This document shows, piece by piece, positions 4,077-63,177 of a DNA stretch of 64,000 nucleotides. How positions within the stretch are numbered: position 1 is the first letter of the stretch; each line of letters opens with the position of its first letter. Source of the DNA: Nannocystis bainbridge (lineage in GTDB: Bacteria > Myxococcota_A > Polyangia > Nannocystales > Nannocystaceae); NCBI RefSeq assembly GCF_028368995.1, contig NZ_JAQNDL010000002.1:224001-288000 (forward strand), written 5' to 3'. The translations under genes and the position numbers were made by a program. Below the pieces are notes generated by a model. It made no database searches and was not told the origin of the DNA. It saw nothing but the letters and a program-made list of their open reading frames with translations.

Positions 4077-6044
4077 ATGTCGCGCCCCAAGTCTGCGTTC
4101 GCGTGTGCGCTGGCCGTGCTCGCCGCGTTGGGCGCTTGTGAGCGGCGCAATCAGGGCATCTCGGCCGCCGAGGCCGGGATCTACTTCCCGGCGGCGCTGA
4201 CGCTCGACCCGCGCGTCGCCGACGGCGACCCGGCGCGGTGGTTGTTCGTCGCCAACGCCAACAGCAACCTGGCCTACAACGCCGGCTCGCTGGTCGCCGT
4301 CGATCTCGATCGGTTCTTCCACGCGTGGATGAACTGCCCGAGCCTCTGCCTCTACAAGGTCGACGACGGCACCTGCAGCGCCGCCGCCAAGACCGACCCG
4401 TGCGGGATCCGTGAGACCGTGCAGGACATCGGCGAAGACGTCGACGCCGACACGCCGTGTCGCCACGCCGCGTTCCGTCCGCAGGTGATCGAGTGCGAGG
4501 ACACGCAGGTGATCGCCCGCGTCGACGTCGACGGCGACGGCGAGTCCGACAAGCCGCTGTCGGTGCGCATGGGCAGCTTCATCACCGCGCTGGCGGGGTG
4601 GAGCCGCAGCGCCAAGGAGGCGCTGCTGCTGGCGACGGTGAAGGCCGACCCGAGCATCACCTGGGTCGAGCTCACCGGCGGCATCGCAAAGCCCTTCGAT
4701 CCCGAGCGACCGCTGGCGCCGACCGACCTCTCGTTCGAGTGCGGGCAGGGCACGACCGACCTGTTCGACTCGGGACGCTGCGCCCGCTCCGGCGACGACT
4801 CGCACGCGCTGCGCTTCCCGTTCGACGACGGCGACAACCGCCGCATCGGCCCGGAGCCGTCGAACATCCTGGTGTCGAAGCTGCGCAACTGGGCGTTCGT
4901 GACGTTCGCGACCACGCCCGAGGTGGTGCTGATCGACCTCGCGTACCCGGTCGGCGGGCAGCTGCCGGCCAACCCCGACGACACCACCGGCGAGCCCGAC
5001 ACGACCACCGGCACGTCGACGACCACGAGCACCTCGACGACCAGCGACACGACCGACACGTCGAGCACGACCGACGCCTCGAGCACGACGGACACCTCGA
5101 GCACGACCGACGCCACGAGCGCGGGCGACACCTCGACGACCACCGGCGCGCCGCCCGAGCCCGAGCCGGTGCCGCCGGGGACCAAGCCGCTCATCGTCGA
5201 CGCGCGCTCGGTGTTCCTCATCGGCGAGTCGTTCGGCGGCGGCGGGTGGGGGATGGCCGAAAGGCCATGTGTGCCCGGCAGCTCGCAGGTGCCCAACGTG
5301 ACGAAGGTGCCGGTCACCGCTGACGGCGAGCCGACCGACTGCGGGCGCTCGCTGATCTACAGCAGCTTCCGCACCGGCCTGTTCTTCGCCCGCCTGACCC
5401 CGGACGAGGCGCTGCCGACCGCCAACCAGGTGTGCATCGGCGCGCCGCGGCTCGACGCCGAGGGCAACCCGATCGACCAGGAGGGCCAGCCGATCGACGC
5501 GCCCGAGCCGGTGCAAGCGGGCGAGCCGGGGGCGCTGCTGTGCACGCCGCAGATCTTCTCGGCGGGGTTCACGTCGGCGGTCGGCTTCACGGTGCCGCAG
5601 GGCTCGGGGCAGATGGGCGACATCGCCTTCTCGCGCGACGGCCGGCGCCTGTTCGCGGTCCAGAGCAGCCCCGGCGCGCTGCTGTTCGTCGACACCAGCG
5701 TCGACGAGCGCGGCGAGACCCGCGACGAGTCGGCCGGCCTCGTCGAGCTGTGCAGCGGCCCGAGCCGCATGGCGCTGTTCGAGGACGGCGCCAACGAGTA
5801 CGCGGCGGTGTCGTGCCCGACGCCCAGCGAGGTGTTCATCATCGATCTGTCCGGCTTCCGCGTGGTCGCCAACGTGGCCACCGGCGCCGGCCCGCACCCG
5901 ATCGTGGTCGACCAGGCGCGCCAGCTGCTCTACGTCGGCAACACCCTCGACGCCACCGTCAGCGTCATCGACATCGCCCGCGACCGCCCGACGCGATTCG
6001 CCGAGATCGCTCGCGTCGGCCTGCAAACGCCCTACAAGCGCTAG
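4077..6044 (+). CDS. Lipoprotein with YVTN/beta-propeller region and internal Thr/Ser/Asp-rich linker
   Basis: Lipobox ALGAC; LFVANANS, DIAFSRDGRRLFAV, VATGAGPHPIVVD, LYVGNTLDATVSVID propeller motifs. Confidence 0.8.
   Translation: MSRPKSAFACALAVLAALGACERRNQGISAAEAGIYFPAALTLDPRVADGDPARWLFVANANSNLAYNAGSLVAVDLDRFFHAWMNCPSLCLYKVDDGTCSAAAKTDPCGIRETVQDIGEDVDADTPCRHAAFRPQVIECEDTQVIARVDVDGDGESDKPLSVRMGSFITALAGWSRSAKEALLLATVKADPSITWVELTGGIAKPFDPERPLAPTDLSFECGQGTTDLFDSGRCARSGDDSHALRFPFDDGDNRRIGPEPSNILVSKLRNWAFVTFATTPEVVLIDLAYPVGGQLPANPDDTTGEPDTTTGTSTTTSTSTTSDTTDTSSTTDASSTTDTSSTTDATSAGDTSTTTGAPPEPEPVPPGTKPLIVDARSVFLIGESFGGGGWGMAERPCVPGSSQVPNVTKVPVTADGEPTDCGRSLIYSSFRTGLFFARLTPDEALPTANQVCIGAPRLDAEGNPIDQEGQPIDAPEPVQAGEPGALLCTPQIFSAGFTSAVGFTVPQGSGQMGDIAFSRDGRRLFAVQSSPGALLFVDTSVDERGETRDESAGLVELCSGPSRMALFEDGANEYAAVSCPTPSEVFIIDLSGFRVVANVATGAGPHPIVVDQARQLLYVGNTLDATVSVIDIARDRPTRFAEIARVGLQTPYKR
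4981..5145 (+). repeat. Low-complexity Thr-rich coding repeat (~18-bp units, TTD[T/A]SS)
   Basis: Repeated cgagcacgaccgac-like units encoding TTDTSS-TTDASS-TTDTSS. Confidence 0.7.
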
Positions 6045-6048
6045 CCCG

Positions 6049-10588: not shown

Positions 10589-10661
10589 GGTGCGCGTCGT
10601 CCTGCAAGATTGTGCGCGTGCATGGAGCACGCGCCGACGTGCTTGAGAGCGACATCCCCAC

Positions 10662-11238
10662 GCGTGCATCGTCCGCTTCCGATGCGGCGTGTGCTCGCAT
10701 CGAGGATGCGTCGTTATGCTCGGTGATTGAGAAGCAGCGATCAGGGCGTCGTTCTCCTCCGATGCGGCGGGCGCTCGCATCGAGGATGCGTCGTCATGCT
10801 CGGTGATTGAGAAGGAACGACGACCTTGTCGCGTGCGTCGTCCGCTTCCGATGCTGCGGGCGCTCGCATCGAGGATGCGTCGTCATGCTCGGTGATCGAG
10901 AAGGAGCGACCACGGCGTCGTCCTCCTTCGATGCGGCGGGCGCTCGCATCGAGGATGCGTCGTCATCCTCCGCCTCTGATGCGGCGGGCGCTCGCATCGA
11001 GGATGCGTCGTCATCCTCCGCCTCCGATGCGGCGGGCGCTCGCATCGAAGATGCGTCGTCATGCTCGGTGATTGAGAAGGAGCGATCACGGCGTCGTCCT
11101 CCTCCGATGCGGCGGGCGCTCGCATCGAGGATGCGTCGTCATGCTCGGTGAGTGAGAAGGAGCGACGATGTCGTCGCGTGCGTCGTCCGCTTCCGATGCT
11201 GCGGGCGCTCGCATCGAGGATGCGTCGGCATGCTCGGT
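10662..11238. repeat. Intergenic array of 8 REP-like palindromic units (BIME-like)
   Basis: Core CGATGCGGCGGGCGCTCGCATCG-AGGATGCGTCGTCAT at about 10680, 10760, 10849, 10929, 10977, 11025, 11105, 11194; spacings 80, 89, 80, 48, 48, 80, 89. Confidence 0.9.
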
Positions 11239-11366: not shown

Positions 11367-12869
11367 TCAGGAGTGCATGCGCTTCTTCTTGCGCCGGCGC
11401 CGACGCGGGGCCGTGGCCTCGTCCTCTTCGACCGCGGGCGGCGGCGGCGGCAGCGGTTCGTCGTCGGCGAAGTCGACGTCGGCGGCGAGCGGGGGCAGGC
11501 CGAGGCGGTCGCGGCGGGCGTCGCTGAGCTGGAAGAAGTTGGCCAGTTCCTCGAGCACGGCGAAGCGCAGCTCGTGGTCGAACTGCTCGGCCGAGCGGGC
11601 CAGGCGGACCAGGTTGCGGCGGTAGATCGCGAGGCCGGTCAGCTCGGGCGGCTCGTCGTCGGAGCCGCCGCGGGTGGCCAGACTGAGCGCGCTGATCCGC
11701 GGGTCGACGCCCTCGAGCACCAGCTCGAGCGACGGTACCTCGTGGACCAGCAGCACCAGCGCGGCGCGGCGCTGGCCGAGCTCGCGCAGGGTCTCGTCGG
11801 GGCAGTTGCTGAGGATCTGCACCACCTTGCGGTGCAGCTGCGCCGGGCTCGGCAGCCACTTCGGCGGCGCGTGGTTTTGGTCGAGCCGGTACACGCGCAG
11901 GGCCGCGTGGCAGGCCGCGCGGGCGTCACCGCGGGCGTACTCGGCCTCGCTCAGCAGGTGCCAGGCGTCGCCGTTGTTGGGGAACCGCTCGGCCGCGGCG
12001 CGCAGGGCCGGCAGGGCCGACTCGGGTACGCCGAGGTCGAGCCACAGCCGGCACATGCGCAGGATGAACTGCAGCACGCGCTGGACCTGGGCGCCGCGCT
12101 CCTCTTCGTCGAGCGGCTCGCCGTCCTCGTCCTCGTCGAGCTCGGCCACCGCGGCTTCGGCGGCCTCGGCGGCCTCGGCGGCCTCGGCGGCCTCCTCGGC
12201 GTCGACGGCTTCACCGTCGCCGCCGGCCTTCGCCTCGCTGTCCTCGCGCACGATCACCGGACGCCGGCGGCGACGCTTGACCGAGCCGTCGAGCTCGAGG
12301 TCGGACGCCTGCGTCGAGGATGAACTCAAGGACATGTCCTCTTCGCCAGCCTCGATGTCGCCGGCCTCGAGCGACGCGTTCAGGATCGCGGAGAACAGCG
12401 GGTGCTCGCGCAGCGCGTCGAGGCGGGCGCGGGCCTCCTCGTCGCGGCCGAGCGAGACCAGGCACTCGGCGCCGAGCAGCTCGAGGTCGAGGGCGTCGAT
12501 GGCGCTGACCGACTCGACGCCGAGGCCGTCGTCGCAGAACTGCAGGGCGCGCGCGGAGTCGCCGAGGTCGAACAGGGCGATCTGGGCGGCAGCGGCGTAG
12601 GGCTCGAAGTAGTCGGGGTCGAGCTCGATCGCCTGGTCGTACCAGCGCAGGCTCTCGACCGGGTCGCCCTCGGCGAGTGCGATCGCGCCGAGCAGCACCG
12701 CGGCGTCGGGCGCGTCGGGGCGGATCCGCTGGGCCTGCAGCGCCGACTGGCGCGCGGCCTCGTAGTCGGCGCGATCGAGCAGAGACCAGCCACGGTCGAG
12801 ATGGGCCGCGTAACGGCTGGTCTCGCCGAAGCCGGAGTCGTCGAGGTCTTCCCCGTCGCCGATCGACAT
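11367..12869 (-). CDS. TPR protein with C-terminal zincin-like (Zincin_1/DUF1025-type) domain
   Basis: N-terminal TPRs; C-terminal ...VHEVPSLELV..GVDPRI...LAIYRRNLVRLARSAEQFDHELRFAVLEELANFF typical of myxobacterial TPR-zincin proteins. ATG at 12869. Confidence 0.75.
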   Translation of the reverse strand: MSIGDGEDLDDSGFGETSRYAAHLDRGWSLLDRADYEAARQSALQAQRIRPDAPDAAVLLGAIALAEGDPVESLRWYDQAIELDPDYFEPYAAAAQIALFDLGDSARALQFCDDGLGVESVSAIDALDLELLGAECLVSLGRDEEARARLDALREHPLFSAILNASLEAGDIEAGEEDMSLSSSSTQASDLELDGSVKRRRRRPVIVREDSEAKAGGDGEAVDAEEAAEAAEAAEAAEAAVAELDEDEDGEPLDEEERGAQVQRVLQFILRMCRLWLDLGVPESALPALRAAAERFPNNGDAWHLLSEAEYARGDARAACHAALRVYRLDQNHAPPKWLPSPAQLHRKVVQILSNCPDETLRELGQRRAALVLLVHEVPSLELVLEGVDPRISALSLATRGGSDDEPPELTGLAIYRRNLVRLARSAEQFDHELRFAVLEELANFFQLSDARRDRLGLPPLAADVDFADDEPLPPPPPAVEEDEATAPRRRRRKKKRMHS

Positions 12870-26739: not shown

Positions 26740-26746
26740 GCCGCGC

Positions 26747-26783
26747 CGGGCGACGGGCTGCTCGCCCGTCGCCCGTGTCTTTT
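26747..26783 (+). terminator. Intrinsic terminator after giant TPR gene
   Basis: CGGGCGACGGGC-tgctc-GCCCGTCGCCCG 12-bp stem followed by TGTCTTTT. Confidence 0.75.
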
Positions 26784-26845
26784 CGGACAGGTCTCCAAGC
26801 ACAGGTTCGAGAGGACAGGAACCAAGGGACATGCCCGTAAGGATC
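26776..26845. repeat. 14-bp-phased GGACATGTCC-like array
   Basis: GGACA-like half-sites at 26785, 26799, 26813, 26827, 26841; the ycaO ATG lies inside one unit. Confidence 0.8.
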
Positions 26846-41618: not shown

Positions 41619-41634
41619 GCGAGCCCCGCGACCA

Positions 41635-41821
41635 GAGCAGCCCGCGCTTCCCCGAGGATGCGCGGGCTTCGTGCGTCCGGGCGCGAGCGCGGCGACGAGA
41701 GCAGCCCGCGCCTCCGAGAGGATGCGCGGGCTTCGTGCGTGCGGGCGCGAGCGCGGCAACAACAGCAGCCCGCGCTTCCACGAGGATGCGCGGGCTTCGT
41801 GCGTGCGTGCGGGCGCGAGCG
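41635..41821. repeat. 64-bp tandem repeat x3, each with a REP-like hairpin
   Basis: gcagcccgcg at 41637, 41701, 41765; stem AGCCCGCGC...GCGCGGGCT; lies between convergent genes. Confidence 0.9.
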
Positions 41822-43130: not shown

Positions 43131-43158
43131 GGGCGGGCTCCGGAGCGGCGGGTCGAAG

Positions 43159-43350
43159 GTTCATGGCGGAAAAGACATGTGCGTGAGGACATGTTCGATG
43201 GACCATGGCGGTTCATGCATGTCCGGAGAGGCATGTCCGAAGGGGCATGGCTGACAGGACACGCGAGAGCGACGGGTCGGAGCGACACCCGGGCGCGCAT
43301 GGCCCGGAGGACATGCGTGCACGGTCGGCGCGGGCCTGGCCCGAGGGACA
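43159..43350. repeat. 14-bp-phased GGACATGTCC-like array, 8 consecutive units plus 2 pairs
   Basis: Units at 43159, 43173, 43187, 43201, 43215, 43229, 43243, 43257; further pairs at 43295/43309 and ~43331/43345. Confidence 0.9.
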
Positions 43351-43368
43351 GCCATGCGCCGGCGCGGC

Positions 43369-46980: not shown

Positions 46981-47012
46981 AATGGCCCGAAGGACATGTC
47001 CTTCGGGCCATT
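46981..47012. repeat. Perfect 32-bp palindrome centred on GGACATGTCC (possible bidirectional terminator)
   Basis: AATGGCCCGAAGGACATGTCCTTCGGGCCATT with AT-rich flanks, between convergent genes. Confidence 0.85.
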
Positions 47013-49729: not shown

Positions 49730-52018
49730 ATGCGACGCGCCTCGCTGTTTGCGCTCTCGGGGATCTTTGTGGGCCTGCCCCTCCGCGCCGCCGCGGCAGA
49801 GCCGCCTCCGCTCCCCGCGGACGCGACGACGCCTCCTGCCAGCGAGACGCCGCCCGCCGATGCCCCGCCGGCGCTGCCGGCCGGCGATCCAGGCGCGGCG
49901 CCTCCGCCCGCGGGGACGGCCGGGGGCGAGGCGAGTGGGGCTGTCTCCGGGGACATGTCCGGAAGTATCAATACGAGCGAGGCGCCGGCGCCCGGGCCCG
50001 AGGCGGAGGTGCCGGCCCCGACGCCGCCGAAGTCGGTCAGCGACAAGCAGCCGGGCATGGTCCAGGGGCGCCGCGAACCGGCGGTCAACAGCCTACGCGG
50101 CGGCCTCGGCCTCTATCACACCACGCTGGCCGACGTCGGCGGCCGGCACACGGTCCGCGTCCGCCTGCACACCGATTTCTTCCGCAAGGAAGGCTTCATC
50201 TACGACAGCAGCGAGCACGGGCCCGACGAGCAGGGCCGGGTGCGCGGCACGGTCAACATCGGCTACAGCCCGTTCAAGTGGGGCGAGGTGTTCCTGGCGG
50301 TGCACAGCCAGGCGTCGCGCAACGCTCGCGCGCAGCCGGGCCGGCAGGACCAGGTCAATCAGTTCGCGCTCGGCGACCTCGATTTCGGCATCAAGGGCGC
50401 GCACCGGTTCGTCAAGGGCGGCGCGATCGGCCTCGGCGGTCAGATGGGCATCGGCCTGCTGTCGGGCACGAGCCGGCTGCTCACCGACAAGGTCAACTTC
50501 AACATCGATTTCCTGTTCACCCTCGATGTCCGCTACCTGACGCAGAAGCAGGTGCCGGTGCGGTTCTCGACCAACATCGGGTGGTTGCTCGACAACTCGA
50601 GCAAGCTGATCGATTTCGGCAAGTTCACCGACCCGACCAGCCGCGAGGTGTCGCGCTTCGCCCTCGGCGTGGCGCCGAGCCGCGTGCGCATGCGCTACGG
50701 CCTCGACTTCCCGGTCCGCCTCGGCAAAGAGGGCAAGTTCGGCCTCGACCCGATCGTCGAGCTCGCGTGGGACGTCGCCACCGCGGAGATGGCGGTGTTC
50801 AAGCAGGAGGGCGCGTCGCCGTCGCCGCTGCCGCGCTCGAGCCTGTGGGGCACCGTCGGCCTGCGCGCCAACGTGATCGCCGGGCTGCACCTCGACGCGG
50901 CGGTCGACATCGGCATGGTGTCGCCCAACTTCGAGTACGGGCCGCCGGTGGCGCCGTGGCAGGTGATCCTCGGCCTCGGCTGGTCGATCGACCCCAACCC
51001 GGTGGTCAAGGAGGTGCCGGCGGCGAGCACCAACGAGCCGCTGCCGCCGCCGGCGGTGGTCGAGGGCCGCGTGGTCGGCCAGGTGCTCGACAACACCGGG
51101 GCGCCGGTCGCGGGGGCCAAGGTGCGATTCCCGGGCGCGGCCAGCAACGCGATCCTGACCGACGACGGCGGCAACTTCACCAGCTACCGGTTCCCCGAGG
51201 GCCAGGTGGCGATCCAGGTCGAGCTGGCCAACAAGGCCACGAAGGACGCGACCGCCGACATCAAGGCCGGCGAGGACACGCAGATCACGATCACGATGGA
51301 CGTCGCCAACACGCCGCCGGTCGGGATCCTCGACGGGGCGTTCACCGACGAGGCAGGCGCGCCGGTGCTGGTGACGCTGTCGGTCTCGGGCAACGGGGTC
51401 GACGAGCCGTTCACGAGCACCGAGGGCGGCCTCATCCGCCTCGAGCTGCCGGCGGGTGATTACTTCGCGATCGCCCGCGCGCCGGGCTTCGAGGAGAAGT
51501 CGCTGCGCTTCACCGTGCAGCCGGGCGAGCAGTTCACGGCGGTCAAGGAGCAGCTGCGCCGGGCGGTGCCGGTCGACACGCCGCTCGTCAGCGGCAAGGG
51601 CAAGAAGCTGCGGCTCAAGAAGGCGATCAAGTACACGTCGGCCAACGGGGTCGACGACAAGAGCGCGCCGCTGGTCGAGCAGCTGGCGGCGTTCCTCAAC
51701 GCGCACCCCGAGTACGAGGAGATCGAGATCGGGGTCCACACCGACGACCGCGGCAACCCGAAGCAGCGCAGCAGCGAGCGCGCCGACGCGGTCCGCAGCG
51801 CGCTGCTGGCCAAGGGCGTGAGCCCCGATCGCGTGACCGCCAACGGCTTCGGCGACAACAGCCCGATCGCGGTGAACCTGACCGCCGCCGGGCGGGCCAA
51901 GAACAACCGCACGTCGATCAAGGTGACCCGCTACAAGGGCGGGGTAGCGGCGTCGACCCCGGCCCCGGCCCCGAAGGCGAAGAAGAAGGCCGAGGAGCCG
52001 GCCGCGCCGCCTCCGTGA
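49730..52018 (+). CDS. OmpA-family outer-membrane protein (beta-barrel-like N-terminus, Ig-like/carboxypeptidase-regulatory-like domains, OmpA C-terminal domain)
   Basis: Signal peptide; GQVLDNTGAPVAGAKV; IEIGVHTDDRG..SSERADAVRSAL..GFGDNSPIA..GRAKNNR. Confidence 0.85.
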   Translation: MRRASLFALSGIFVGLPLRAAAAEPPPLPADATTPPASETPPADAPPALPAGDPGAAPPPAGTAGGEASGAVSGDMSGSINTSEAPAPGPEAEVPAPTPPKSVSDKQPGMVQGRREPAVNSLRGGLGLYHTTLADVGGRHTVRVRLHTDFFRKEGFIYDSSEHGPDEQGRVRGTVNIGYSPFKWGEVFLAVHSQASRNARAQPGRQDQVNQFALGDLDFGIKGAHRFVKGGAIGLGGQMGIGLLSGTSRLLTDKVNFNIDFLFTLDVRYLTQKQVPVRFSTNIGWLLDNSSKLIDFGKFTDPTSREVSRFALGVAPSRVRMRYGLDFPVRLGKEGKFGLDPIVELAWDVATAEMAVFKQEGASPSPLPRSSLWGTVGLRANVIAGLHLDAAVDIGMVSPNFEYGPPVAPWQVILGLGWSIDPNPVVKEVPAASTNEPLPPPAVVEGRVVGQVLDNTGAPVAGAKVRFPGAASNAILTDDGGNFTSYRFPEGQVAIQVELANKATKDATADIKAGEDTQITITMDVANTPPVGILDGAFTDEAGAPVLVTLSVSGNGVDEPFTSTEGGLIRLELPAGDYFAIARAPGFEEKSLRFTVQPGEQFTAVKEQLRRAVPVDTPLVSGKGKKLRLKKAIKYTSANGVDDKSAPLVEQLAAFLNAHPEYEEIEIGVHTDDRGNPKQRSSERADAVRSALLAKGVSPDRVTANGFGDNSPIAVNLTAAGRAKNNRTSIKVTRYKGGVAASTPAPAPKAKKKAEEPAAPPP

Positions 52019-52061
52019 GCGACACGCGCGCGGCTCGTGACCGACGAGCCGCGGGCGCGGC

Positions 52062-52634
52062 TCACGAGCAGGCGCAGGTGCACTCGGGCGGCGGATCGTC
52101 GCCGGCGCACAGCGGCCAGCCGGCCGGGGTGCCGCACAGGCCCTCGCTGGGGCCGGCCATGATCAGCTCGACGGCGCCGTCACAGCCGCGGCGGCCGAAC
52201 ACGCCGAGGCCGATCTGGTCGCACGAGGTCGGGACCGGGCACTTGGGCTCGCCAGGCACGAACACGCAGGTGCGGAACAGTTGGGTGACGTCGCAGGTGC
52301 CGGGGTAGACGGGGACGACGTCCATCCAGCGGCACTCGCCGCCGCCGTGGGCGACGCCGTCGCAGGCGGGGGCGGAGGTCAGGGCGGCGCAGAAGGCTTC
52401 CCCTTCGGACATGTCTCGAGGGACCTGTCCGGAAGTGCCGGTCGGGTCGTCGCCGGTCGTGTCGGTGGCGCCGCCCGTGCCGGTGGTGCCGCCGGTGGTG
52501 CCGTCGCACTCGGGTGGGTCGCCGAACTCGGTCGGCGAGGTGTCGGAGACGACGACGAGCCCGCCCGTGTTGGCGCCGGTGGGCTCCTTGCAGGCGCACA
52601 GGGCGAGGCCGAGGACGAGCGCGGCGCGGGTCAT
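52062..52634 (-). CDS. Cys-rich lipoprotein, hypothetical
   Basis: MTRAALVLGLALCAC lipobox; Thr/Gly linker; Cys-rich C-terminus. Confidence 0.75.
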   Translation of the reverse strand: MTRAALVLGLALCACKEPTGANTGGLVVVSDTSPTEFGDPPECDGTTGGTTGTGGATDTTGDDPTGTSGQVPRDMSEGEAFCAALTSAPACDGVAHGGGECRWMDVVPVYPGTCDVTQLFRTCVFVPGEPKCPVPTSCDQIGLGVFGRRGCDGAVELIMAGPSEGLCGTPAGWPLCAGDDPPPECTCACS

Positions 52635-53061
52635 CGCTCCGAAGGTGTAGACAAGCCCGCGCCCGCGCGGCAAGCGACGAGGCGAGCGCTTGCGCACGCG
52701 CAGACGCCGGGGCCGCGCGCCGAACACGATGCAAAGCGACGACGAACGCGAGCGACGGGGGCGGCCGCGGCGACACGGCGAGGGGAGCGGGCCGCGGGGC
52801 GACAGGCTTCACGGCGGGCAGCCCTGGGCGATCCGCTGGCCGACGCGTCGCGCGGGTCGGGAGGCAGCGGCTTGCGCAGCCCGCTGCCGCCGGGGTCATA
52901 TGGCGTTCAGCTTGCTCCACTGCTGGCTGCCCGCGAGGTCGGCCGGGCGCGACCCGCAGCACCGGGACAGCTCGAGCGTCCGTGGGCGCCTCGGAGAGGA
53001 TGAGTCACGAGGCCCCGGAGGGGGTGACAGCCGGCGACGCGGTCAGCATCGCGACATGTCT

Positions 53062-53592
53062 CTAAGGACATGTCTGGGGCGGGGCCGGCTGGGCGAGGCC
53101 GAGGCGGCGCAGGCCGGCGCACACGAGCACGAGCACGAGCACGGCGGCCTCGACGAGGGCGAGGTCGCGTGGGTCGCGGATCAGGCCGAGGGCGACGATG
53201 AGGGTGGTGGCGCCGGCCGGGGCGTGCTCGGCGTCGAGCAGGACGGTGAGGCCGCCGGTGGCGGCGAGGGCGAAGGTGACGGCGCCGAGGTGGGCGAGAT
53301 CGAGGCGCGTGAGCACGGCCGGGACGTCGGTGACGCCGAACAGGTGCAGCGCCGCGGCGCCGCTGAGGACGGCGACGCCGTGCGCGACGAGCACGCGGCG
53401 CGGATGGTTGGCGGGCGCGGTGGGGGCGACGAAGGCGAGGAAGGCGGTCGGGCCGAGCGAGGGGAACACCCACGGCAAGGCTGTCCAAAAGGCCATGCCC
53501 GAACAGACAGCGATGGCGAGGCCGGCGCCGAGGCTCACGCGCGCGGCGCGGGCGAGGCGCGAGGAGAGCGAGGCGAGCACGAGGGCGAGCAT
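53062..53592 (-). CDS. HPP family membrane protein
   Basis: FPSLGPTAFL, ANHPRRVLVAH, AEHAPAGATTLIVALG. Confidence 0.88.
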   Translation of the reverse strand: MLALVLASLSSRLARAARVSLGAGLAIAVCSGMAFWTALPWVFPSLGPTAFLAFVAPTAPANHPRRVLVAHGVAVLSGAAALHLFGVTDVPAVLTRLDLAHLGAVTFALAATGGLTVLLDAEHAPAGATTLIVALGLIRDPRDLALVEAAVLVLVLVCAGLRRLGLAQPAPPQTCP

Positions 53593-53683: not shown

Positions 53684-54493
53684 TCAAGGACAGGCCGCTT
53701 CGTCGGTCTCGTCGACGCAGTCGACGTGGCCGTCGCAGACCCAGTTCGCCGGGACCTCGAGGCCGTCGTCGCACGCGAAGTAGCAGAGGGCCGTGGCCTC
53801 GTCGGACGCGTCATCGCAGTCGGGCGTGCCGTCGCAGCGGTCGAACGCGGGGATCTGCTGGCCGTCTTCGCACACGAACACGCAGGTCGCCTCGGCCTCG
53901 TCGGACATGTCCTTGCAGTCAGGTTGGCCGTCGCACACGTACTGGGCCGAGATCGTGCCGCCGCCGCTGCACGCGAACGCGGGGCCGCCGTTGCACTGGA
54001 TCGTGAGGGCGCCGACGCTGGCCTTGGCGGCCTTGTCACAGGCGGCGACGGCGTCGGCGTACTGGCCGTTGCAGGTGAAGTAGGCGTCCTCCTGGGCGCA
54101 GCCGAGCGGCTCGAGGCAGCCCTGATAGCCGACGGCTGCGTCGGCGAGGCAGGCGACGTAGGGCGCGTGCAGTGGGTCGGCCTCGAGGTCGCAGACGCAC
54201 GAGGTGTTGGCGGTGGCGACGAGGTCGGCGACGCAGCCGCCGACGTCAGGGTAGGCGCCCGCCTCGACCTCGCACGGACAGCGCAGGTCGGCGGCCGCCT
54301 GGGTGGCGATGGCCTGCTTCTCGCACGCGGGGATCGTCACCGGGGTGGTGGTGGCGGCGGTGGTGGTCGCGTCGGACGCGTCGGTGTCGGTGGTGGTCGC
54401 TTCGGTGGCCGAGGCCGTGGCGCCCGTGCTCGCCTGTTCGTTGGGACAGGCGCACAGCAGGAGCGCGCCCGCGAGCCGCGTTCGAGGCTTCAT
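53684..54493 (-). CDS. Lipoprotein with three LDL-receptor class A-like repeats
   Basis: LLLCAC lipobox; FACSGGGTISAQYVCDGQPDCKDMSDE, FVCEDGQQIPAFDRCDGTPDCDDASDE, FACDDGLEVPANWVCDGHVDCVDETDE. Confidence 0.88.
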   Translation of the reverse strand: MKPRTRLAGALLLCACPNEQASTGATASATEATTTDTDASDATTTAATTTPVTIPACEKQAIATQAAADLRCPCEVEAGAYPDVGGCVADLVATANTSCVCDLEADPLHAPYVACLADAAVGYQGCLEPLGCAQEDAYFTCNGQYADAVAACDKAAKASVGALTIQCNGGPAFACSGGGTISAQYVCDGQPDCKDMSDEAEATCVFVCEDGQQIPAFDRCDGTPDCDDASDEATALCYFACDDGLEVPANWVCDGHVDCVDETDEAACP

Positions 54494-55893: not shown

Positions 55894-57351
55894 TCAGGGG
55901 CGCGGCGGGGCCGGCAAGATCCACGGGCGAGGGCCCAGGCCGTCGACCTCGCGCGCGAGGTCGACGTCGGGGTCGACGAGGCGCGCGGCGGGGCGGCCGT
56001 TGTAGGTGACGAACACGTCGGCGCGGACCTCGGCGCCGGGGTTCTCGGCCGCGATGTGGTGCGCGTACTCGAGGACCATGTCGGGCTGGAAGGCCATCTG
56101 CTTGGCCTGCTGGGCGGTCAGGGTCGGCTCCGGATCGACGAGGCGCTGGCGGCCGCTGACGGGGTCGCGCACGCGGTAGACGACGCTGCCGACCTTCTCG
56201 ACCAGCATGACCTGCCAGGCGAAGCGATAGCCCTCCTCGGTCCAGGCGGTGTCGCCGGGGTAGGCGAAGCGGCGCAGCGGCAGGGTGAGCTGCACGGCGA
56301 AGTGGAGCGCGAGCAGGCCGAGCAGCAGCGGCCGGGCCGGGAACGAGCTGGCGGATAGGACAGGTGCCATGGGGCATGTCCTCGGGGACAGGCGACACCA
56401 CAGCCGCCGCGGCCAGTCGGGCGGGAAGAACACCAGGGCGGCGGCGGCCATGAGCCACGGGAACATGCCGATCGCGGGGAACAGGGCGCCGGTGAGGCCG
56501 TGGAACACGAGCACGCCGGCGTAGGCGAACGGGCGCGTGCGCGGGTGCAGCAGCAGGAACGGGACCGAGAGGTCGAAGGCGGCGCCGCCCCAGCTCATGA
56601 GGTGGGCGGCCTCGGGCCGGCGCAAGAGCCCGCCGATCAGCGGGAAGTCGGCGCGCGCGGCCAGCCACAGCCGCAGCGGCTGGGCGTGCAGCAGCCAGTC
56701 GGGGCGCAGCTTGGCCAGCCCGGCGAAGAAGTAGACCAGCCCGACCTGCAGCCGCAGCGCCCACAACGCCCAGGCCGGGGCGACGGCGACGCGACGGCCG
56801 AGCGGGAGCACGATCATCAGCAGGGCGACGACGCTGACGAAGTAGTAGTGGTTGAGGTAGGTCGCCTTGTCGAGCAGTTCGACGTAGGTGAAGAGGACGA
56901 AGAACAGGGCGATCGCGGGCCGGTAGCACACGCCCGCGGCGACGAGCAGCGACAGCGCGCCGAGGGCGACGAACACGGCGATCATGCCGGCCTCGGGCAG
57001 CGGTGCGAGCCAGCCGAAGCCCCAGTAGTGGAAGTGGAAGGTCGGGTCGACGTACAGCTGGTGGATCCACCCGCGCGCGGCGAAGCGGACCGTGCCGGCG
57101 AACATCAGCAGGCCAAAGGCGATCCGGAACGCGTGGAGGCCGGCGGCGTCGACCGGGGCGAGCAGGGCGCGCAGGAGGCGGCTGAGGGCGCCATGGCCAT
57201 CATCTGCCCGAATCGACATGTCTATTGGGACACGTTCTACCGGCGCGTCCTGCTCGTCATCTGTCCGAAGCGACATGTCGCAGGGGACATGTTCATCGTG
57301 CGGCCGGCCGACCGCGGGCGGGCTGCGGTCCGGGGGGGCGCGGTCGGGCAT
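55894..57351 (-). CDS. HTTM-domain protein (vitamin K-dependent gamma-carboxylase-like)
   Basis: AFRIAFG, FHFHYWGFGW, ELLDKATYLNHYY, VYFFAGLAKLRPDW, IGMFPW, WTEEGYRFAWQVMLVEK, QPDM. Confidence 0.92.
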   Translation of the reverse strand: MPDRAPPDRSPPAVGRPHDEHVPCDMSLRTDDEQDAPVERVPIDMSIRADDGHGALSRLLRALLAPVDAAGLHAFRIAFGLLMFAGTVRFAARGWIHQLYVDPTFHFHYWGFGWLAPLPEAGMIAVFVALGALSLLVAAGVCYRPAIALFFVLFTYVELLDKATYLNHYYFVSVVALLMIVLPLGRRVAVAPAWALWALRLQVGLVYFFAGLAKLRPDWLLHAQPLRLWLAARADFPLIGGLLRRPEAAHLMSWGGAAFDLSVPFLLLHPRTRPFAYAGVLVFHGLTGALFPAIGMFPWLMAAAALVFFPPDWPRRLWCRLSPRTCPMAPVLSASSFPARPLLLGLLALHFAVQLTLPLRRFAYPGDTAWTEEGYRFAWQVMLVEKVGSVVYRVRDPVSGRQRLVDPEPTLTAQQAKQMAFQPDMVLEYAHHIAAENPGAEVRADVFVTYNGRPAARLVDPDVDLAREVDGLGPRPWILPAPPRP

Positions 57352-57361
57352 TTCGCTCGGG

Positions 57362-58474
57362 TCAGTCGCCGTCGTTGTCGCTGAGGGCGAGGGTGACGCC
57401 GAGGGTGCTGGCGACGTCGAGCTTGAGCAGGCGACGGAACGTGTCGAGCTCGTCGCGGGCCAGCTGGACGGCGGTGCGGTCGGCGACGAGCGCCTCCGTC
57501 AGGGGCTCGGGGACGGCGACGAGGACCTCGACGGTGCGGGCGTACTGGGCCCGCACGCGCTCGTCGAGGGCCGGATCGAGGGCGGCGACGAGGACCGAGA
57601 TGCCGGCCGCGGGCGCGTCCAGATCGGCGCCGTGGTAGACGGCCCACACGCCGGCGAGGTTGGCCTGCAGGTCGGCGCGGGTGCGGCCGGAGAAGCGCGA
57701 CTCCATCAGGCTCGGGTCCTCGGCGGCGCCGGAGAGGTTGCCGAGCGGGTTGTCGAGCTTGCCCTTGACCATGGTGAGGCAGGCGTCGATCGACTTGTTG
57801 ATGACCTCGTCGACGCCGGCCTTGAGCGAGGGGTAGGCGGCGCTGCCGGTGCCGGCGGTGGCGAGGGCATCGGCGTACTCGCTGGCCCAGGCGGTGGCGA
57901 GGGCGTCGGTGCGGGCCTCGATGTCGACGGCGAGGGCCCGGGCGTAGCCGCAGCGGCGCGCGCCGTCCTCGCTCTGGAAGGCGGTCAGGGCGGCGCCCGG
58001 GTCCTCGCCCCACAGCAGGTACTCGAGCGCGGGCATGCCCTTGGCGCTGACGCCGAGGCCGCCGAGGTAGCCGGCGTCGGCGGCCGCGGGGGCGCCGGCG
58101 ACCGCGGTCTCGACGGTGTCGACGCGCACGGGCCAGAAGTCGAGGGCGTTGAGCTCGGGCGGCAGCGGGCCGAAGCCGAACGGGAGCACGCGCGACCAGG
58201 CGTCGCGCTCCTCCGACCAGGCGGCCTGGGCGGCCGCGAGGGTGGTGGCGTCGGGGCCGGCGCACAGCGGCTCAAGGGCGGCGACCAGCGCCCCGGCCCG
58301 CTCGTGCAGGGTCGCGAAGGCGGGGGCCGCGACGTCGTGGCCGATGTGGGCCAGCACGGCCGGGCGAGCGTCGTCGCCGCTGCCGCCGCCGCAGGCGAGG
58401 CCGGCGAGCATGCCGGCACCTGCTCCGAAGAGCATGGCCGAGAGGACAGGGCGAGAGAGACCGGCGCGGATCAT
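57362..58474 (-). CDS. Imelysin-family lipoprotein
   Basis: LDFWP, KGMPALEYLLWG, KLDNPLG, ESRFSG, C-terminal LALSDNDGD. Confidence 0.92.
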   Translation of the reverse strand: MIRAGLSRPVLSAMLFGAGAGMLAGLACGGGSGDDARPAVLAHIGHDVAAPAFATLHERAGALVAALEPLCAGPDATTLAAAQAAWSEERDAWSRVLPFGFGPLPPELNALDFWPVRVDTVETAVAGAPAAADAGYLGGLGVSAKGMPALEYLLWGEDPGAALTAFQSEDGARRCGYARALAVDIEARTDALATAWASEYADALATAGTGSAAYPSLKAGVDEVINKSIDACLTMVKGKLDNPLGNLSGAAEDPSLMESRFSGRTRADLQANLAGVWAVYHGADLDAPAAGISVLVAALDPALDERVRAQYARTVEVLVAVPEPLTEALVADRTAVQLARDELDTFRRLLKLDVASTLGVTLALSDNDGD

Positions 58475-58599: not shown

Positions 58600-58665
58600 A
58601 GGCATGTCCTCGCGGACATGTCCTTTCGCGCCGGGCCTCGGGGACATGTGCGAAGGGGCAGGCGG
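58600..58665. repeat. 14-bp-phased GGACATGTCC-like array
   Basis: Units at 58600, 58614, 58628 (degenerate), 58642, 58656. Confidence 0.8.
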
Positions 58666-58679: not shown

Positions 58680-60056
58680 TCACAGCGACTCCAGGAAGGC
58701 GATCAGGTCGGCGCGCTCGTCGGCGGAGAAGCTCCGCACGGCCTCGCGCGCGGGCTCGGCCTCGCCGCCGTGCCACAGCACCGCCTCCATCAGCGAGCGG
58801 GCGCGGCCGTCGTGGAGGAAGCTGGTGTGGCGGTTGACCGTCTCGACCAGGCCGATGCCCCACAGCGGCGGGGTCCGCCACTCGTTGCCGTCGGCCAGGT
58901 AGTCGCGGCGGCCGTCGCCGAGCCCGTCGCCCATGTCGTGCAGCAGGAGGTCGGTGTACGGCCAGATCGTCTGGCCCCGGACCTCGTCGATGGCGGCGTC
59001 GGCGGCGGTGATGTGGCGCGGGACGTGGCAGTCGACGCAGCCGGCCGCCGCGAACAGCCCCTTGCCGCGCAGGACCTCGGGCGCGTCGGCGCCGCGGCGA
59101 GCGGGGACGGCGAGGGTCGCGGTGTAGAAGACGACGTCTTCGAGCAGGTCGGCCGTGACCTCGGGCTGGCCGCCGTGCGGGGCCGCGGCGCACTCGGGCT
59201 GGCCTTCGGGACAGTTCTCGAGCGGGAACATCTCGGTCGTCAGGCCCATGTCGCCGAGGAAGGCGCCGGCCGTCTGCTGGGCGATGGTCGACTGGTTGGC
59301 CTTCCAGCCGAACCGGCCGAGCACGGCGGCGTCGGCGGCCAGGTCCCACACGTAGTTGGCGCGGCCGGAGATGCCGTCGCCGTCGGCGTCGCGTGGGTCC
59401 TCGCGGGCGACGATGTCGGCCTCGGGGATGGCCTCGAGCAGGCCCATGCCGATCATCACCGGGGCGACGCGCGGCGAGATGAAAAGGTCGGCCGGCAGCG
59501 GGCCGTAGGCCGGGTCCTCGAGGGTGTAGGTCGGGACGCGCAGGCTGTACGCCTCGCCGTCGGCGAAGGCGCCCGGGCGCTCGACCCACGTGACCTTCGG
59601 GACAGCTTCGGGCGCGACCCCGTCGATGGCGTTCGGCTGCAGCTGGTCGCCGTAGCCGGGCACATCGCGCGGGCCGCCGTGCAGGCCCTCGCCGGGGATC
59701 GAGAGGCGCAGCAGCATGCTGGTGAACGGCTCGTCGGCCTCGGGCGGGCGGCCGCGGCCGTCCTTGAAGTGGCAGGCCGAGCACGAGCGGGCGTTGAAGG
59801 TCGGGCCGAGGCCGTCGCGCCCGGTGGTCGAGGCCGGGGCGATGACCCAGTTCTTGTTGAAGAACGAGTTGCCGACCACGAACCGCTGGCGCCGCTCGAA
59901 GGTCATGTTGCGGGCGCTGTACGAGAACGCGTTGGGGCTCTCGTCGCGGATGGTGGTGTCGCCGCCGGCCAGCTCCTCGCCCGGCTCGAGCGCCGGGGCG
60001 AGGTCTTCACAGGATGCCCCGAAGAACAGGGCCAAAAAGACAGGCAGGCGGCGCAC
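58680..60056 (-). CDS. Di-heme oxidoreductase family (DHOR) c-type cytochrome lipoprotein
   Basis: DGLGPTFNARSCSACH and GCVDCH (two CXXCH), GRFGWKA, PYTDLLLHDMG, WRTPPLWG, LHDGRAR. GTG start at 60056. Confidence 0.93.
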   Translation of the reverse strand: MRRLPVFLALFFGASCEDLAPALEPGEELAGGDTTIRDESPNAFSYSARNMTFERRQRFVVGNSFFNKNWVIAPASTTGRDGLGPTFNARSCSACHFKDGRGRPPEADEPFTSMLLRLSIPGEGLHGGPRDVPGYGDQLQPNAIDGVAPEAVPKVTWVERPGAFADGEAYSLRVPTYTLEDPAYGPLPADLFISPRVAPVMIGMGLLEAIPEADIVAREDPRDADGDGISGRANYVWDLAADAAVLGRFGWKANQSTIAQQTAGAFLGDMGLTTEMFPLENCPEGQPECAAAPHGGQPEVTADLLEDVVFYTATLAVPARRGADAPEVLRGKGLFAAAGCVDCHVPRHITAADAAIDEVRGQTIWPYTDLLLHDMGDGLGDGRRDYLADGNEWRTPPLWGIGLVETVNRHTSFLHDGRARSLMEAVLWHGGEAEPAREAVRSFSADERADLIAFLESL

Positions 60057-60064
60057 GACCCAGT

Positions 60065-61366: not shown

Positions 61367-62092
61367 ATGGCGGCGACCGCCGATACTTCACAGAACCGTA
61401 ACTATTACGACGCTTTCTCTGCCGGCTACGACGACGGCCGCGATCGCGGATACCACAAGCTCATCGACGACCAGGCGGCGGCGATCGTCAGCCGCTACGC
61501 CGCCGGGAAGGACGCGCTGGAGGTCGGCTGCGGCACGGGGCTCATCCTCCAGCGGGTGGCGTCGGTCGCCCGCTCGGCCAAGGGCGTCGACCTGTCGCCG
61601 GGCATGCTGGAGCACGCGCGCAGCCGCGGGCTCGACGTCCAGGAGGGCAGCGCGACCGACCTGCCGTTCGCCGACGCCAGCTTCGACGTGACCTACTCCT
61701 TCAAGGTGTTGGCGCACATCCCCGGCTGGGAGCGCTGCCTGCAGGAGATGGCGCGCGTGACCCGGCCCGGCGGGCACATGGTGTTCGACATCTACAACCG
61801 CAACTCGCTGCGGTACCTGATCAAGCGGCTGTGGGGCCCGCGCAAGACGTCGCACAGCTTCGACGAGGCGGCGATCTCGACCCGCTTCCTCAGCCCGGCC
61901 GAGGCCGCGGACGTGCTGCCCGCGGGCACCCGCGTGGTCGGCCGCGCCGGCATCCGCATCACGACGCCGCACCCGGTGGTCTGCCGCCTGCCCGTGATCG
62001 GCAGGGTCCACGACCGCGTCGAGTGGGCGCTGATGGAGAGCCCGCTGGCCGCGCTGGCCGGGTTCTACGTGTTTGTGGCGGAGAAGTTGTGA
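61367..62092 (+). CDS. Class I SAM-dependent methyltransferase
   Basis: LEVGCGTG, GVDLSPGML, LPFADASFD, EMARVTRPGG. Start 61355 or 61367. Confidence 0.93.
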   Translation: MAATADTSQNRNYYDAFSAGYDDGRDRGYHKLIDDQAAAIVSRYAAGKDALEVGCGTGLILQRVASVARSAKGVDLSPGMLEHARSRGLDVQEGSATDLPFADASFDVTYSFKVLAHIPGWERCLQEMARVTRPGGHMVFDIYNRNSLRYLIKRLWGPRKTSHSFDEAAISTRFLSPAEAADVLPAGTRVVGRAGIRITTPHPVVCRLPVIGRVHDRVEWALMESPLAALAGFYVFVAEKL

Positions 62093-63177
62093 GGGTCCTG
62101 GTCGTCACGACGACCTTCCCGCAATGGGCCGGCGATCCGCGCGGCCGCTTCATCCTGCGTCACTGGGAGGCGCGCGCGGCGGCCGGCGACACGGTCAGAT
62201 TTCTGGTGCCGCGGACGGCGTGGGTCCGCGGCGCGCTGCCGTCGCCGTGCGAGGTGGTCCGCTTCGCCTACGCGCCGACCGGCATGTCGTCGCTGACCGG
62301 CCAGTTCGGCATCCTCGAGAACATCCGCGATCGGCCGTGGCGGGCGCTGCTGGTGCTGCCGTTCGTGGCCGCGCTGCAGCGGGCGCTGCAGCGCGAGATC
62401 CGGGCGTTTCGCCCCGACAAGGTCGCGGCCCACATGCTGCTGCCGTGCGGCTGGCTGGCGGCCGAGGCGGCCCGCGCGGCCCGGGTGCCGTGCGAGCTGT
62501 ACGGCCACGGCACCGATGTCGACCTGCTGCTGCGCCTGCCCGGACCGCTGCGCGAGGCGGCCCTGACGGCGCTGGGGCAGGCCGAGAGCGTCGCCCTGCC
62601 GTCGGCCGAGAAGCTGGCCCGGGTGGCCGCGGCCTGGCCGGGTCCGCCGCCGCTGCGCATCGAGACGATGGTCGGCAGCGTGGCCGATGGGGCAGGTTCC
62701 AACGCACATGTCTATCAGGACATGTCCGAACGCGCAGGCGACGAGGTGCTGTTCCTCGGGCGCCTGATCAAGCAGAAGGGCGTCGACGATCTGCTGCGGG
62801 CGGCGGCGCTGATGCCCCGGCGGCCGCGCCTGGCGATCGCCGGCGACGGGCCGGAGCGGCGCCGACTGCAAGGCATGGCGGAAGGGCTGCGGCTCGACGC
62901 GCGCTTCCACGGGTTCGTCGAGGGCGCGGCCAAGGAGGCGCTGTACCGGCGAGCTGCGCTGCTGTGCGTGCCGTCGCGCGAGATCGGCGGGCTGTCCGAG
63001 GGGGCGCCGCTGGTGATCGCCGAGGCCAAGCGCTACGGGCTGCCGGTGGTGGCGACGGCCGTGGGCGGGATCCCCGAGCTGATGCGCGACCTGTATCCCG
63101 AGACCGCCCTGGTCCGGCCCGGAGCGCCGCAGGCGTTGGCGCAAGCGCTGGCGCAGGCGCTCGCACAGGGGGCCTGA
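62089..63177 (+). CDS. Glycosyltransferase family 4
   Basis: VRVLVVTTTFP, HGTDV, LFLGRLIKQKGVDDLL, EGAPLVIAEA, VVATAVGGIPE; GTGA overlap with the methyltransferase stop. Confidence 0.92.
   Translation: MRVLVVTTTFPQWAGDPRGRFILRHWEARAAAGDTVRFLVPRTAWVRGALPSPCEVVRFAYAPTGMSSLTGQFGILENIRDRPWRALLVLPFVAALQRALQREIRAFRPDKVAAHMLLPCGWLAAEAARAARVPCELYGHGTDVDLLLRLPGPLREAALTALGQAESVALPSAEKLARVAAAWPGPPPLRIETMVGSVADGAGSNAHVYQDMSERAGDEVLFLGRLIKQKGVDDLLRAAALMPRRPRLAIAGDGPERRRLQGMAEGLRLDARFHGFVEGAAKEALYRRAALLCVPSREIGGLSEGAPLVIAEAKRYGLPVVATAVGGIPELMRDLYPETALVRPGAPQALAQALAQALAQGA

Follow-up and report, generated by a model that had tools for sequence, protein, structure and literature searches.

A palindromic element across the window and the genome

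The stretch of Nannocystis bainbridge DNA analysed here (the window: the whole 64,000 nucleotides at C3:224001-288000 of the genome designated G000) encompasses a YcaO cyclodehydratase gene, a TfuA-like gene, kinase genes and, both between and inside these and other predicted genes, many copies of a short palindromic element, the dyad TGTCC-N4-GGACA. The initial annotation of the window, made from the sequence alone, had taken the repeating unit to be the 10-mer GGACATGTCC followed by four variable bases and had proposed a non-random, phased, chromosome-wide palindromic system. The excess over shuffled controls is clear in the window itself, where 27 matches to GGACATGTCC with at most one mismatch compare with 1.62 expected (maximum 5 in 100 dinucleotide shuffles), and where 21 pairs of CATG lie exactly 14 bp apart, against a mean of 0.33 and a maximum of 2 in 200 block shuffles. 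The system is indeed chromosome-wide: in the genome assembly (11.05 Mb, 71.5% GC, 90.5% complete; being in five contigs, it gives an incomplete chromosome map), GGACATGTCC has 956 exact copies and ranks 56th among all 10-mers despite its 40% A+T, whereas each of 29 other palindromes of the same composition has 0-139 copies.

The element itself is bounded differently from what had been proposed. The dyad TGTCC-N4-GGACA is present in 1987 exact copies, compared with a maximum of 83 and a median of 8.5 for controls of the same composition and 5-N4-5 layout, and with 3 copies of the reversed pattern. In the spectrum of half-site spacings, only this dyad and the abutting arrangement of GGACA and TGTCC (956 copies, that is, GGACATGTCC) stand out, with 0-20 copies at every non-array spacing. 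Because the dyad is commoner than GGACATGTCC, and because 1145 of the 1987 dyads are isolated, with no completing half-site on either side, the dyad is the basic element and the 14-bp period is the length of the site; where dyads abut, they share a CATG junction, which generates both the GGACATGTCC junction and the strict register. Isolated half-site pairs are almost exclusively separated by four bases (1145 copies, compared with 12 for N3, 3 for N5 and at most 9 for other lengths up to N10), and given that these pairs lie outside arrays, their spacing cannot come from array slippage. The total load in Nannocystis is about 2000 exact and 6200 near-exact dyads.

The profile of the unit (G.73 G.76 A.64 C.95 A.90 T.91 G.96 T.60 C.80 C.78) shows a CATG core retained in 90-96% and outer bases in 60-80%, followed by four spacer bases that are near random and enriched in A+T. 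The arms extend to RCMTGTCC-N4-GGACAKGY, without covariation in the extension: an upstream A is matched by T in 76% of the cases, an upstream C by G in only 49%. The primary element is, then, a clade-specific, operator-like 14-bp dyad. Full-text searches, with subscription journals and supplementary files outside their scope, yielded no description of the motif, and among the matches listed for the 10-mer together with bacteria there were only primers and p53 papers; in agreement with the initial annotation, which knew of no motif of this form, the element appears new to the literature. GGACATGTCC fits the eukaryotic p53 half-site consensus, which we take to be a coincidence.

Phased arrays and turnover of units

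Pairs of units with at most two mismatches are found 14 bp apart in 2655 cases in this genome, with further peaks at 28 (1235), 42 (953), 56 (461) and 70 bp (193); the 13- and 15-bp distances account for 21 and 10 pairs, respectively, and distances neighbouring the peaks for 10-40. Likewise, phased CATG triples number 1670 at a period of 14 and at most 24 at every other period from 9 to 21. Chaining of seeds in 14-bp steps yields 3129 loci, 2124 of these with 2-11 units, with a total of 7758 units over 96 kb. Loci with two units form the largest class (n=1074); beyond 2, even unit numbers are not favoured among the loci of this genome. The density of arrays is even, at 19.2 per 100 kb, and does not shift where the GC skew turns (C3:1.47 Mb and C1:4.43 Mb); arrays are present on all five contigs.

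The 4-bp spacers of the same array are identical in 4-5% of the pairs, against 1.2% by chance, which indicates that most units are not recent duplicates. Nevertheless, some arrays are recent 14-, 28- or 42-bp duplications, and whole units are both gained and lost, so that the conserved phase, which had been taken as an argument against recent slippage, does not exclude it. Target-site duplications flanking units or arrays occur at chance level only.

Arrays at gene 3' ends

All figures in this section depend on the calls of our own codon-bias gene finder (8112 genes, 84% coding). The arrays are found chiefly a short way 3' of stop codons and in the spacers of convergent gene pairs, and they avoid promoter-bearing spacers, a tie that is absent from the initial annotation. 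Among the 440 arrays of at least five units, 377 are intergenic, and the 400 that have genes on both sides are distributed among convergent (259), tandem (131) and divergent (10) spacers, although convergent spacers make up only 17% of intergenic DNA. For arrays of at least three units, the median distance from the stop codon to the start of the array is 17-21 bp; in tandem spacers, 76% of the arrays are nearer to the upstream stop (median 19 bp, compared with 171 bp to the next start). When intergenic spacers of 30-600 bp are considered, at least one unit is present in 52% of the convergent (634/1211), 20% of the tandem (650/3234) and 8% of the divergent ones (106/1267). An array within 100 bp after the stop follows 1389 of the 7102 genes of at least 150 aa, and the native codon bias of these genes is slightly higher. 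Generic perfect hairpins occur in 186 of the 577 convergent spacers without units and in 78 of the 634 with units (32% vs 12%), which indicates that the motif partly replaces them.

Isolated exact dyads follow the same gradient, with 0.74 per kb in convergent, 0.34 in tandem and 0.12 in divergent spacers and 0.058 in coding DNA, and 539 of the 1145 lie inside predicted genes. About 190 arrays of at least three units are wholly inside predicted genes, some of these possibly through gene-call errors; such arrays read as 14-residue repeats of the GHV, DMS or T(C/G)P type, mostly in linker-like stretches. Copies inside genes use the frames that are tolerated by codon usage (DMS 74, GHV 39, TCP 10). 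Near the 102 tRNA genes, array cases are few, with four downstream and one upstream; arrays also lie upstream of 89 small genes. An orientation bias of CAGG/CCTG variant arrays relative to transcription (28 vs 13) was discarded because the counts overlap and the bias is not robust.

Sites in the window

The copies in the window are listed in Table 1 together with the outcome of a synteny comparison over about 40 kb in six species.

Table 1 Units, dyads and arrays of the window (positions are window coordinates)
Position	Element	Location	Comparison with other species
12330-12339	Isolated exact unit	Within predicted gene 11367-12869	
26785-26840	Four units, all in 14-bp register; the core is CAGG in three of them	Between the hairpin 3' of the open reading frame (ORF) of 3536 aa and the YcaO gene, whose start codon (26831) coincides with the ATG in the last unit	Intergenic spacer of 131 bp in four other species and 117 bp in G010 (exactly 14 bp fewer, one unit having been lost)
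28058-28081	Two units forming a GAAA-loop hairpin, followed by TTTTAAAA	Directly 3' of the YcaO stop (28057)	
28100-28237	Degenerate units in several registers, with one 16-bp spacing and one in-register run of three		56- to 95-bp higher-order repeats containing the dyad in the spacer of other species
30745-30768	Exact unit and dyad	Inside Ser/Thr kinase gene 29297-32713	Dyad arms retained and 4-bp spacer altered among all five aligned species
32288-32311	Dyad TGTCC-TGAA-GGACA	Inside kinase gene 29297-32713	Identical in 5 of 5 aligned species
32882-32958	Two short sub-arrays that differ in register	35-110 bp upstream of the TfuA gene	Arrays also in G007, G005, G010 and G001
37052-37145	Seven-unit array; folds as RNA on both strands (z = -4.5 and -5.2)	Convergent spacer; ends 26 bp from the stop of kinase gene 37171-40182	5-6-unit arrays adjoining the same stop codon in G010, G005 and G007
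43159-43266	Eight-unit degenerate array, 1-4 mismatches per unit	Between two minus-strand genes	
46981-47012	32-nt perfect palindrome with one unit at the tip and T-rich/A-rich tails; predicted, probably a bidirectional terminator hairpin	Convergent spacer	In all six species
49937-49965	Exact unit and dyad TGTCT-CCGG-GGACA	Predicted start of OmpA-like gene	Conserved in six species, the other five with a CCTG core
52407-52430	Two units	Inside predicted ORF 52062-52673, which has no Pfam match	Conserved in six species
53052-53075	Two units	Overlapping the stop of gene 53062-53592	
53903-53912	Isolated exact unit	Inside the low-density lipoprotein (LDL)-receptor-repeat gene	Conserved in six species
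56358-56395	Three in-phase units	Inside the HTTM/gamma-carboxylase-like gene	Conserved in six species
57236-57294	Units in intergenic spacer 57220-57361	Downstream of gene 57362-58411	Units in all six species, in varying numbers; about 62-bp higher-order repeat in G007
58600-58651	Four units, one degenerate	30-80 bp after the stop of gene 58680-60056	Present in 5 of 6 species, deleted in G010
62690-62741	Three to four units	GT4 glycosyltransferase gene 62089-63177, linker before the C-terminal domain	Motif kept in six species though the stretch diverges more than its flanks

The arrays that had been reported for the window hold up to different degrees. That at 43159-43266 has the eight units that were described, and that at 53052-53075 has two. 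The array at 26785-26845 has four units rather than five, and at 37052-37159 seven of the eight units are good and one is degenerate; the four units at 58600-58665 have at most two mismatches except for a degenerate one, and the array at 62690-62741 has three units plus a degenerate one and lies within a gene. The stretches 28058-28237 and 32882-32958, which had been taken for single-register arrays, each consist of several short sub-arrays that do not share one register, and 46981-47012 is a one-unit palindrome rather than an array. Density is higher after about 24 kb, as had been observed, but the cause is the gene layout, with a single ORF of 3536 aa occupying 16129-26739.

The in-gene units and dyads sampled in the window are kept in all five or six aligned species. 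A Pfam domain that flanks the array in the glycosyltransferase gene shows that its in-gene location is not a gene-call error; in the more distant G004, the glycosyltransferase has a linker of similar length and no motif. At the spacer 52019-52061, the motif of four other species is represented in G000 by a plain GC hairpin.

Three observations concern the surroundings of the arrays. A GC-rich hairpin at 26745-26784 (GGGCGACGGGC...GCCCGTCGCCC), directly after the stop of the 3536-aa ORF, is conserved in six species. The block GGCGGTTTTGCGGTAGCCTGCGC (32810-32850), situated midway along the spacer that precedes the TfuA gene, is conserved in five species and could be a promoter or a small RNA element. 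At the loci orthologous to 43131-43368 in G007, G005, G010 and G001, there is no CATG array and many CCTGGTC-GAAG-GGACAG hairpins are found about 40-60 bp apart; from their half-site, these may be a sister repeat family.

Distribution and evolution

When one genome per prokaryote species is searched for the exact two-unit pattern, 78 stretches are found, 75 of them from Nannocystis, Nannocystaceae or unclassified Myxococcales and one each from a gammaproteobacterial metagenome-assembled genome (MAG), Diplocloster agilis and a Terriglobales MAG. Among viral contigs, a single stretch has this pattern, so that the motif is essentially absent; 79 viral stretches that match a looser pattern, four CATG at 14-bp intervals, proved to be unrelated low-GC repeats. 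In the 73 genomes of the order, which are related and therefore non-independent samples, the loose pattern occurs 869 times in G000, 409-527 times in five other near-complete Nannocystis genomes, 1-13 times in five fragmented Nannocystis MAGs, for which repeat counts are underestimates, and 22, 10, 2 and 1 times in four genomes of other genera; it has no matches in the remaining 58 genomes of the order, and the reversed control has none throughout.

The dyad is spread more widely than the arrays, with 1550-2090 copies in near-complete Nannocystis genomes, 87-169 in all five genomes of genus g2, 67-295 in genus g4 (plus 696 in G061) and 0-20 in the other 14 genera, compared with 0-10 for controls. 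As judged from these counts, the dyad is a trait of a three-genus clade of Nannocystaceae, and the arrays are a later elaboration, mainly in Nannocystis. In G013, from a sister genus, the dyad is flanked by CC..GG rather than by the CA..TG of Nannocystis, and 25 of the 35 sampled dyads lie in predicted genes, a proportion that is indicative only, the gene model having been trained on G000. Two genomes stand apart from their congeners: G061 (genus g4), with 107 CATG triples that follow the GGACATGTCC consensus and are distributed over many contigs, and G067 (genus g15), with 17; the congeners sampled have none or almost none. This could reflect either a lineage-specific expansion, transfer of whatever drives the repeat, or misplacement of the MAGs.

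Across the six species compared, divergent spacers keep their length (for example, 336/335/335/334/337/302 bp) whereas those 3' of genes have a wide range of lengths (83-436 and 87-515 bp in two examples). Orthologous arrays at the same gene ends retain CATG and the phase, with diverged 4-bp spacers and changed unit numbers. In some species (G007, G001 and G005), the dyad forms part of higher-order tandem repeats that are peculiar to the species and about 56, 62 and 95 bp long; at the loci orthologous to 28058-28415 and 57220-57361, each such repeat has one dyad or unit, with the same genes upstream.

Strand symmetry, pairing and RNA folding

Compensatory changes are at the level of shuffled partners for all pairings compared, namely, between the halves of a unit, across the 4-bp spacers, in flanking spacers and beyond the arms of the dyad. 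Two-unit loci have an approximately twofold excess of covariation, albeit from tiny numbers, and the mean number of pairable positions is 7.52 vs 7.47. The element does not distinguish the strands either. When 719 arrays in tandem spacers are oriented by the upstream gene, the spacers CGAA and TTCG occur 47 and 46 times, and CTTC and GAAG 45 times each; downstream of these arrays there is no enrichment of T beyond a spacer-like composition. Isolated dyads are likewise symmetric, with a T-run following in 15% and an A-run preceding in 11%. Read as RNA on either strand, the arrays fold with z from -2.0 to -6.5, a strong folding that is expected for any row of palindromes, and an isolated dyad has a stem of only 5 bp, which makes it too weak for an RNA hairpin. 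No Rfam family reaches its gathering score anywhere in the window.

Search for a partner protein or mobile element

The Y1 transposase of the RAYT type (PF01797) has no match in the 90.5% complete G000 (three candidates scored; the control genomes responded), and the four-helix-bundle gene PF05635 was not found in G000 either. An IS110-family element of about 1.4 kb is present in three near-identical copies (99.6-99.7%) at C1:556343, C2:2315553 and C3:876687. As a source of the arrays, this element was rejected: none of the three copies is inserted in an array.

The canonical PadR operator, as given in PMC3506622, is ATGT-N8-10-ACAT, and the dyad, written as cATGTcc-N4-ggACATg, reads ATGT-N8-ACAT and fits the consensus given there. 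PadR (PF03551) was nevertheless rejected as the binder, with none of 13 scored candidates matching in G000 and all 14 control genomes responding, and the likeness is probably coincidental. ParB_N is matched in 68 of the 73 genomes, in nearly all as a single copy, with only G010 and G009 scoring more than one; the dyad-bearing genera have no consistent extra ParB/Noc-like paralogue, a search in which homologues of MatP and SlmA were not included. A scan of 25 proteins encoded in the window, including the ECF sigma factor and the kinases, revealed nothing that suggests a binder, in line with the initial annotation, which had seen no cognate protein in the window.

Comparison with known repeats and binding sites

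The element resembles several known systems and coincides with none of them. Like repetitive extragenic palindromic sequences (REPs), their hairpin-forming doublets (REPINs) and bacterial interspersed mosaic elements (BIMEs), it is a high-copy, clade-specific palindrome that lies after stop codons and between convergent genes, is clustered and capable of forming hairpins, and differs in copy number and arrangement between related species. REPs have a GTAG head, and BIMEs contain linkers of several types. Unlike these, the dyad is a 14-bp unit with a free 4-bp spacer and no covariation of the stem, is accompanied by no RAYT/Y1 gene, and forms strictly phased head-to-tail arrays with many copies in genes, whereas REP clusters alternate in orientation and have variable linkers; a stem-loop of 20-40 nt maintained by compensatory change, as in REPs, was not found, and the U-rich tract that follows the hairpin of an intrinsic terminator on the sense strand is likewise missing.

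The DNA uptake sequences (DUS) of Neisseria and the uptake signal sequences (USS) of Pasteurellaceae share with the dyad a restriction to one genus or family, copy numbers of about a thousand or more, an even distribution over genes and spacers, an enrichment at terminators, and differences between related clades in the flanking bases, such as those between G013 and Nannocystis. DUS and USS are asymmetric motifs that form inverted pairs; the dyad, unlike them, has a free spacer and 14-bp phased arrays. Similarly, the cyanobacterial highly iterated palindrome HIP1 (GCGATCGC) is clade-limited and found in both coding and non-coding DNA, but it is a contiguous octamer, unphased and not tied to gene ends.

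With respect to how the arrays might work, the closest analogues are the met-boxes of MetJ, the heptads of omega and the parC iterons of ParR, sites that lie edge to edge at a fixed period such that neighbouring dimers can touch. Those arrays are confined to one or a few promoters or centromeres, whereas here about 2100 arrays are found, at gene 3' ends, and promoter spacers are avoided. The matS sites of MatP, the SlmA-binding sites (SBS) and the Noc-binding sites (NBS) are palindromic dimer sites as well (12-16 bp), scattered over the chromosome and often within genes, but they number in the tens and have a macrodomain bias, compared with the thousands of evenly spread, arrayed and gene-end-linked dyads.

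A predicted dimer site at the ends of transcription units

Recognition by a dimeric protein accounts for the anatomy of the element better than either slippage or RNA folding does. The element has the features of a generic dimer operator, that is, inverted arms at a fixed spacing, a free spacer and independent variation of the arms; together with symmetry relative to transcription and a conservation that is blind to the reading frame, these point to a duplex site of a symmetric dimer. We therefore consider the dyads, with a probability of roughly 0.45 and on the strength of sequence comparison, to be sites of a putative dimeric duplex-DNA-binding protein that marks the ends of transcription units. 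A homodimer would read the dyad on duplex DNA with one arm per monomer, the arm centres being 9 bp apart; on arrays, dimers would load side by side, each turned by about 120 degrees from the previous one, and the 30-150 bp covered in this manner would mark the end of the transcription unit as a roadblock, an insulator or a topological barrier. Arrays would grow and shrink by whole units, and isolated in-gene sites would serve as weaker single binding sites. A dimeric protein loading into a filament had been proposed in the initial annotation; strict spacing, free spacer and independent arms speak for the dimeric site, no binder was identified in the searches above, and the filament is conjectural. 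In its more specific form, in which a helical protein sheath on phased dyads stops or insulates RNA polymerase or traps supercoils and constitutes a genome-wide boundary code, the proposal is doubtful, and we are just as reserved about the corollary that boundaries so marked stand after about a fifth of the genes and at half of the convergent gene pairs.

Several points weigh against protein-read boundaries. No binding protein emerged among PadR proteins, extra ParB paralogues or the proteins of the window. Sites of ordinary regulators lie in promoters, which the dyads avoid. The dyads are placed as terminator hairpins are, generic hairpins are less frequent in convergent spacers with units, the arrays fold strongly as RNA, and the elements at 28058-28081 and 46981-47012 resemble classical terminators consisting of a hairpin and a T-run. 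Arrays inside some 190 predicted genes are awkward for a strong roadblock, and adjacent dimers would both need to occupy the 6-bp ACATGT junction, with possible steric conflict. Furthermore, since each unit of an array can pair with every other one, the lack of covariation counts for little there, and gene positions rest on a crude codon-bias gene finder.

The first alternative is that the units are REP/BIME-like hairpins in RNA or single-stranded DNA, which would act in bidirectional termination or protection of mRNA 3' ends, with neighbouring units pairing in the transcript as a 10-bp stem with a 4-nt loop or as longer nested stems, and with arrays arising by slippage. This explanation, which we regard as possible and clearly less probable than a dimer site, accommodates the short distance of arrays from stop codons, their preference for the upstream stop in tandem spacers, the contrast between convergent and divergent spacers, the apparent exchange of motif and generic hairpin (including the plain hairpin at 52019-52061), the RNA folds, the two hairpins with T-rich tails and the predominance of two-unit loci. 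It is at odds with the lack of compensatory changes under any pairing scheme, the absence of T-runs and of strand asymmetry, the lack of a preference for even unit numbers beyond 2, and the 1145 isolated dyads with 5-bp stems, 539 of them in predicted genes, as are, by a crude count, most of those sampled in G013; in addition, a loop length of four is fixed about 100 to 1, which hairpin stability does not demand. Less probable still, and in our view unlikely, is a self-propagating signature without a role in expression, maintained by molecular drive (an uptake signal as in DUS and USS, biased repair or methylation of the type proposed for HIP1, a nuclease or a recombinase), such that copies accumulate where they are least harmful, at gene 3' ends and, less so, in tolerant coding stretches. 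The clade-limited and graded copy numbers (67-696 in g4 when G061 is included), the even density on all contigs, the many in-gene copies in tolerated frames, the glycosyltransferase linker, where the motif takes the place of a similarly long stretch and is not an insertion, the slightly higher native codon bias of array-followed genes and the variable length of 3' but not divergent spacers all agree with drive. However, the combination of a palindromic dyad and a free spacer is what marks the site of a dimeric binder, known uptake signals have another form, and drive on single units leaves the strict phase of arrays unexplained; neither the mobile-element enzymes searched for nor target-site duplications were found, IS110 copies lie outside arrays, viral contigs essentially lack the motif, and array positions are kept across species.

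The remaining two explanations are far less probable. A macrodomain or cell-cycle system in the strict sense of matS/MatP, SBS/SlmA or NBS/Noc, with which the initial annotation had drawn a comparison, could make use of a 14-bp palindromic site suited to a dimer that is found chromosome-wide and also in genes, but is rendered very improbable by the thousands rather than tens of sites, the link to gene 3' ends, the density of about 19 arrays per 100 kb on every contig without change at the skew turning points, and the lack of a consistent extra ParB_N paralogue in dyad-bearing genera. Neutral minisatellites, in which a 14-bp unit would be spread by replication slippage alone and decay afterwards, seem hardly credible: recent 14-, 28- and 42-bp duplications and differences in unit number between species are as expected, but about 3100 separate loci have the same unit, decay is position-specific, with CATG retained next to a random spacer, few neighbouring spacers are identical, phase-breaking spacings are nearly absent though other spacers commonly change length, and isolated dyads keep the N4 spacing. 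The three more probable explanations, namely, the dimer site, the hairpin and the driven signature, are not fully exclusive, given that a protein could recognise the hairpin form and that sites seeded by drive could be co-opted.

Myxobacteria have some of the largest bacterial genomes, and classical terminators are hard to find in DNA of 70% GC. How roughly 8000 myxobacterial genes are insulated in such DNA is poorly understood, and one short site code in half of the convergent junctions of a genus prized for natural products bears on this question. Should a protein read them, the dyads would make up a boundary system of a new kind, chromosome-wide in extent, and provide a useful part for the engineering of myxobacterial gene clusters; should they be RNA or selfish elements, they would be a new REP- or DUS-like family in a phylum for which we found none described. 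In either case, the graded spread, with sister genera at about 100 copies and Nannocystis at about 2000 dyads plus arrays, offers a natural series for the origin of a repeat.

Other features of the window

The window also contains tandem repeats, two of which are unrelated to the 14-bp motif, namely, those at 10661-11238 (80/169-bp period, about 3.4-6.7 copies) and 41619-41811 (64 bp, 3 copies, 89% identity). A third repeat, at 34377-34641 between the TfuA-like gene and the next gene, has a 74-bp period and 3.6 copies with 100% identity.

The 3536-aa ORF and the YcaO cyclodehydratase gene follow one another (16129-28057), and the TfuA-like gene (32994-34286) lies 5 kb further, with the ECF sigma factor and the Ser/Thr kinase between YcaO and TfuA. 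From its gene content, this region could be a peptide-modification locus of the thioamide/azoline type. Two further genes encode domain types that are unusual in bacteria, the one at 53684-54493 with LDL-receptor class A repeats and the one at 55894-57219, which is similar to vitamin-K-dependent gamma-carboxylase and combines the HTTM with the lumenal domain.

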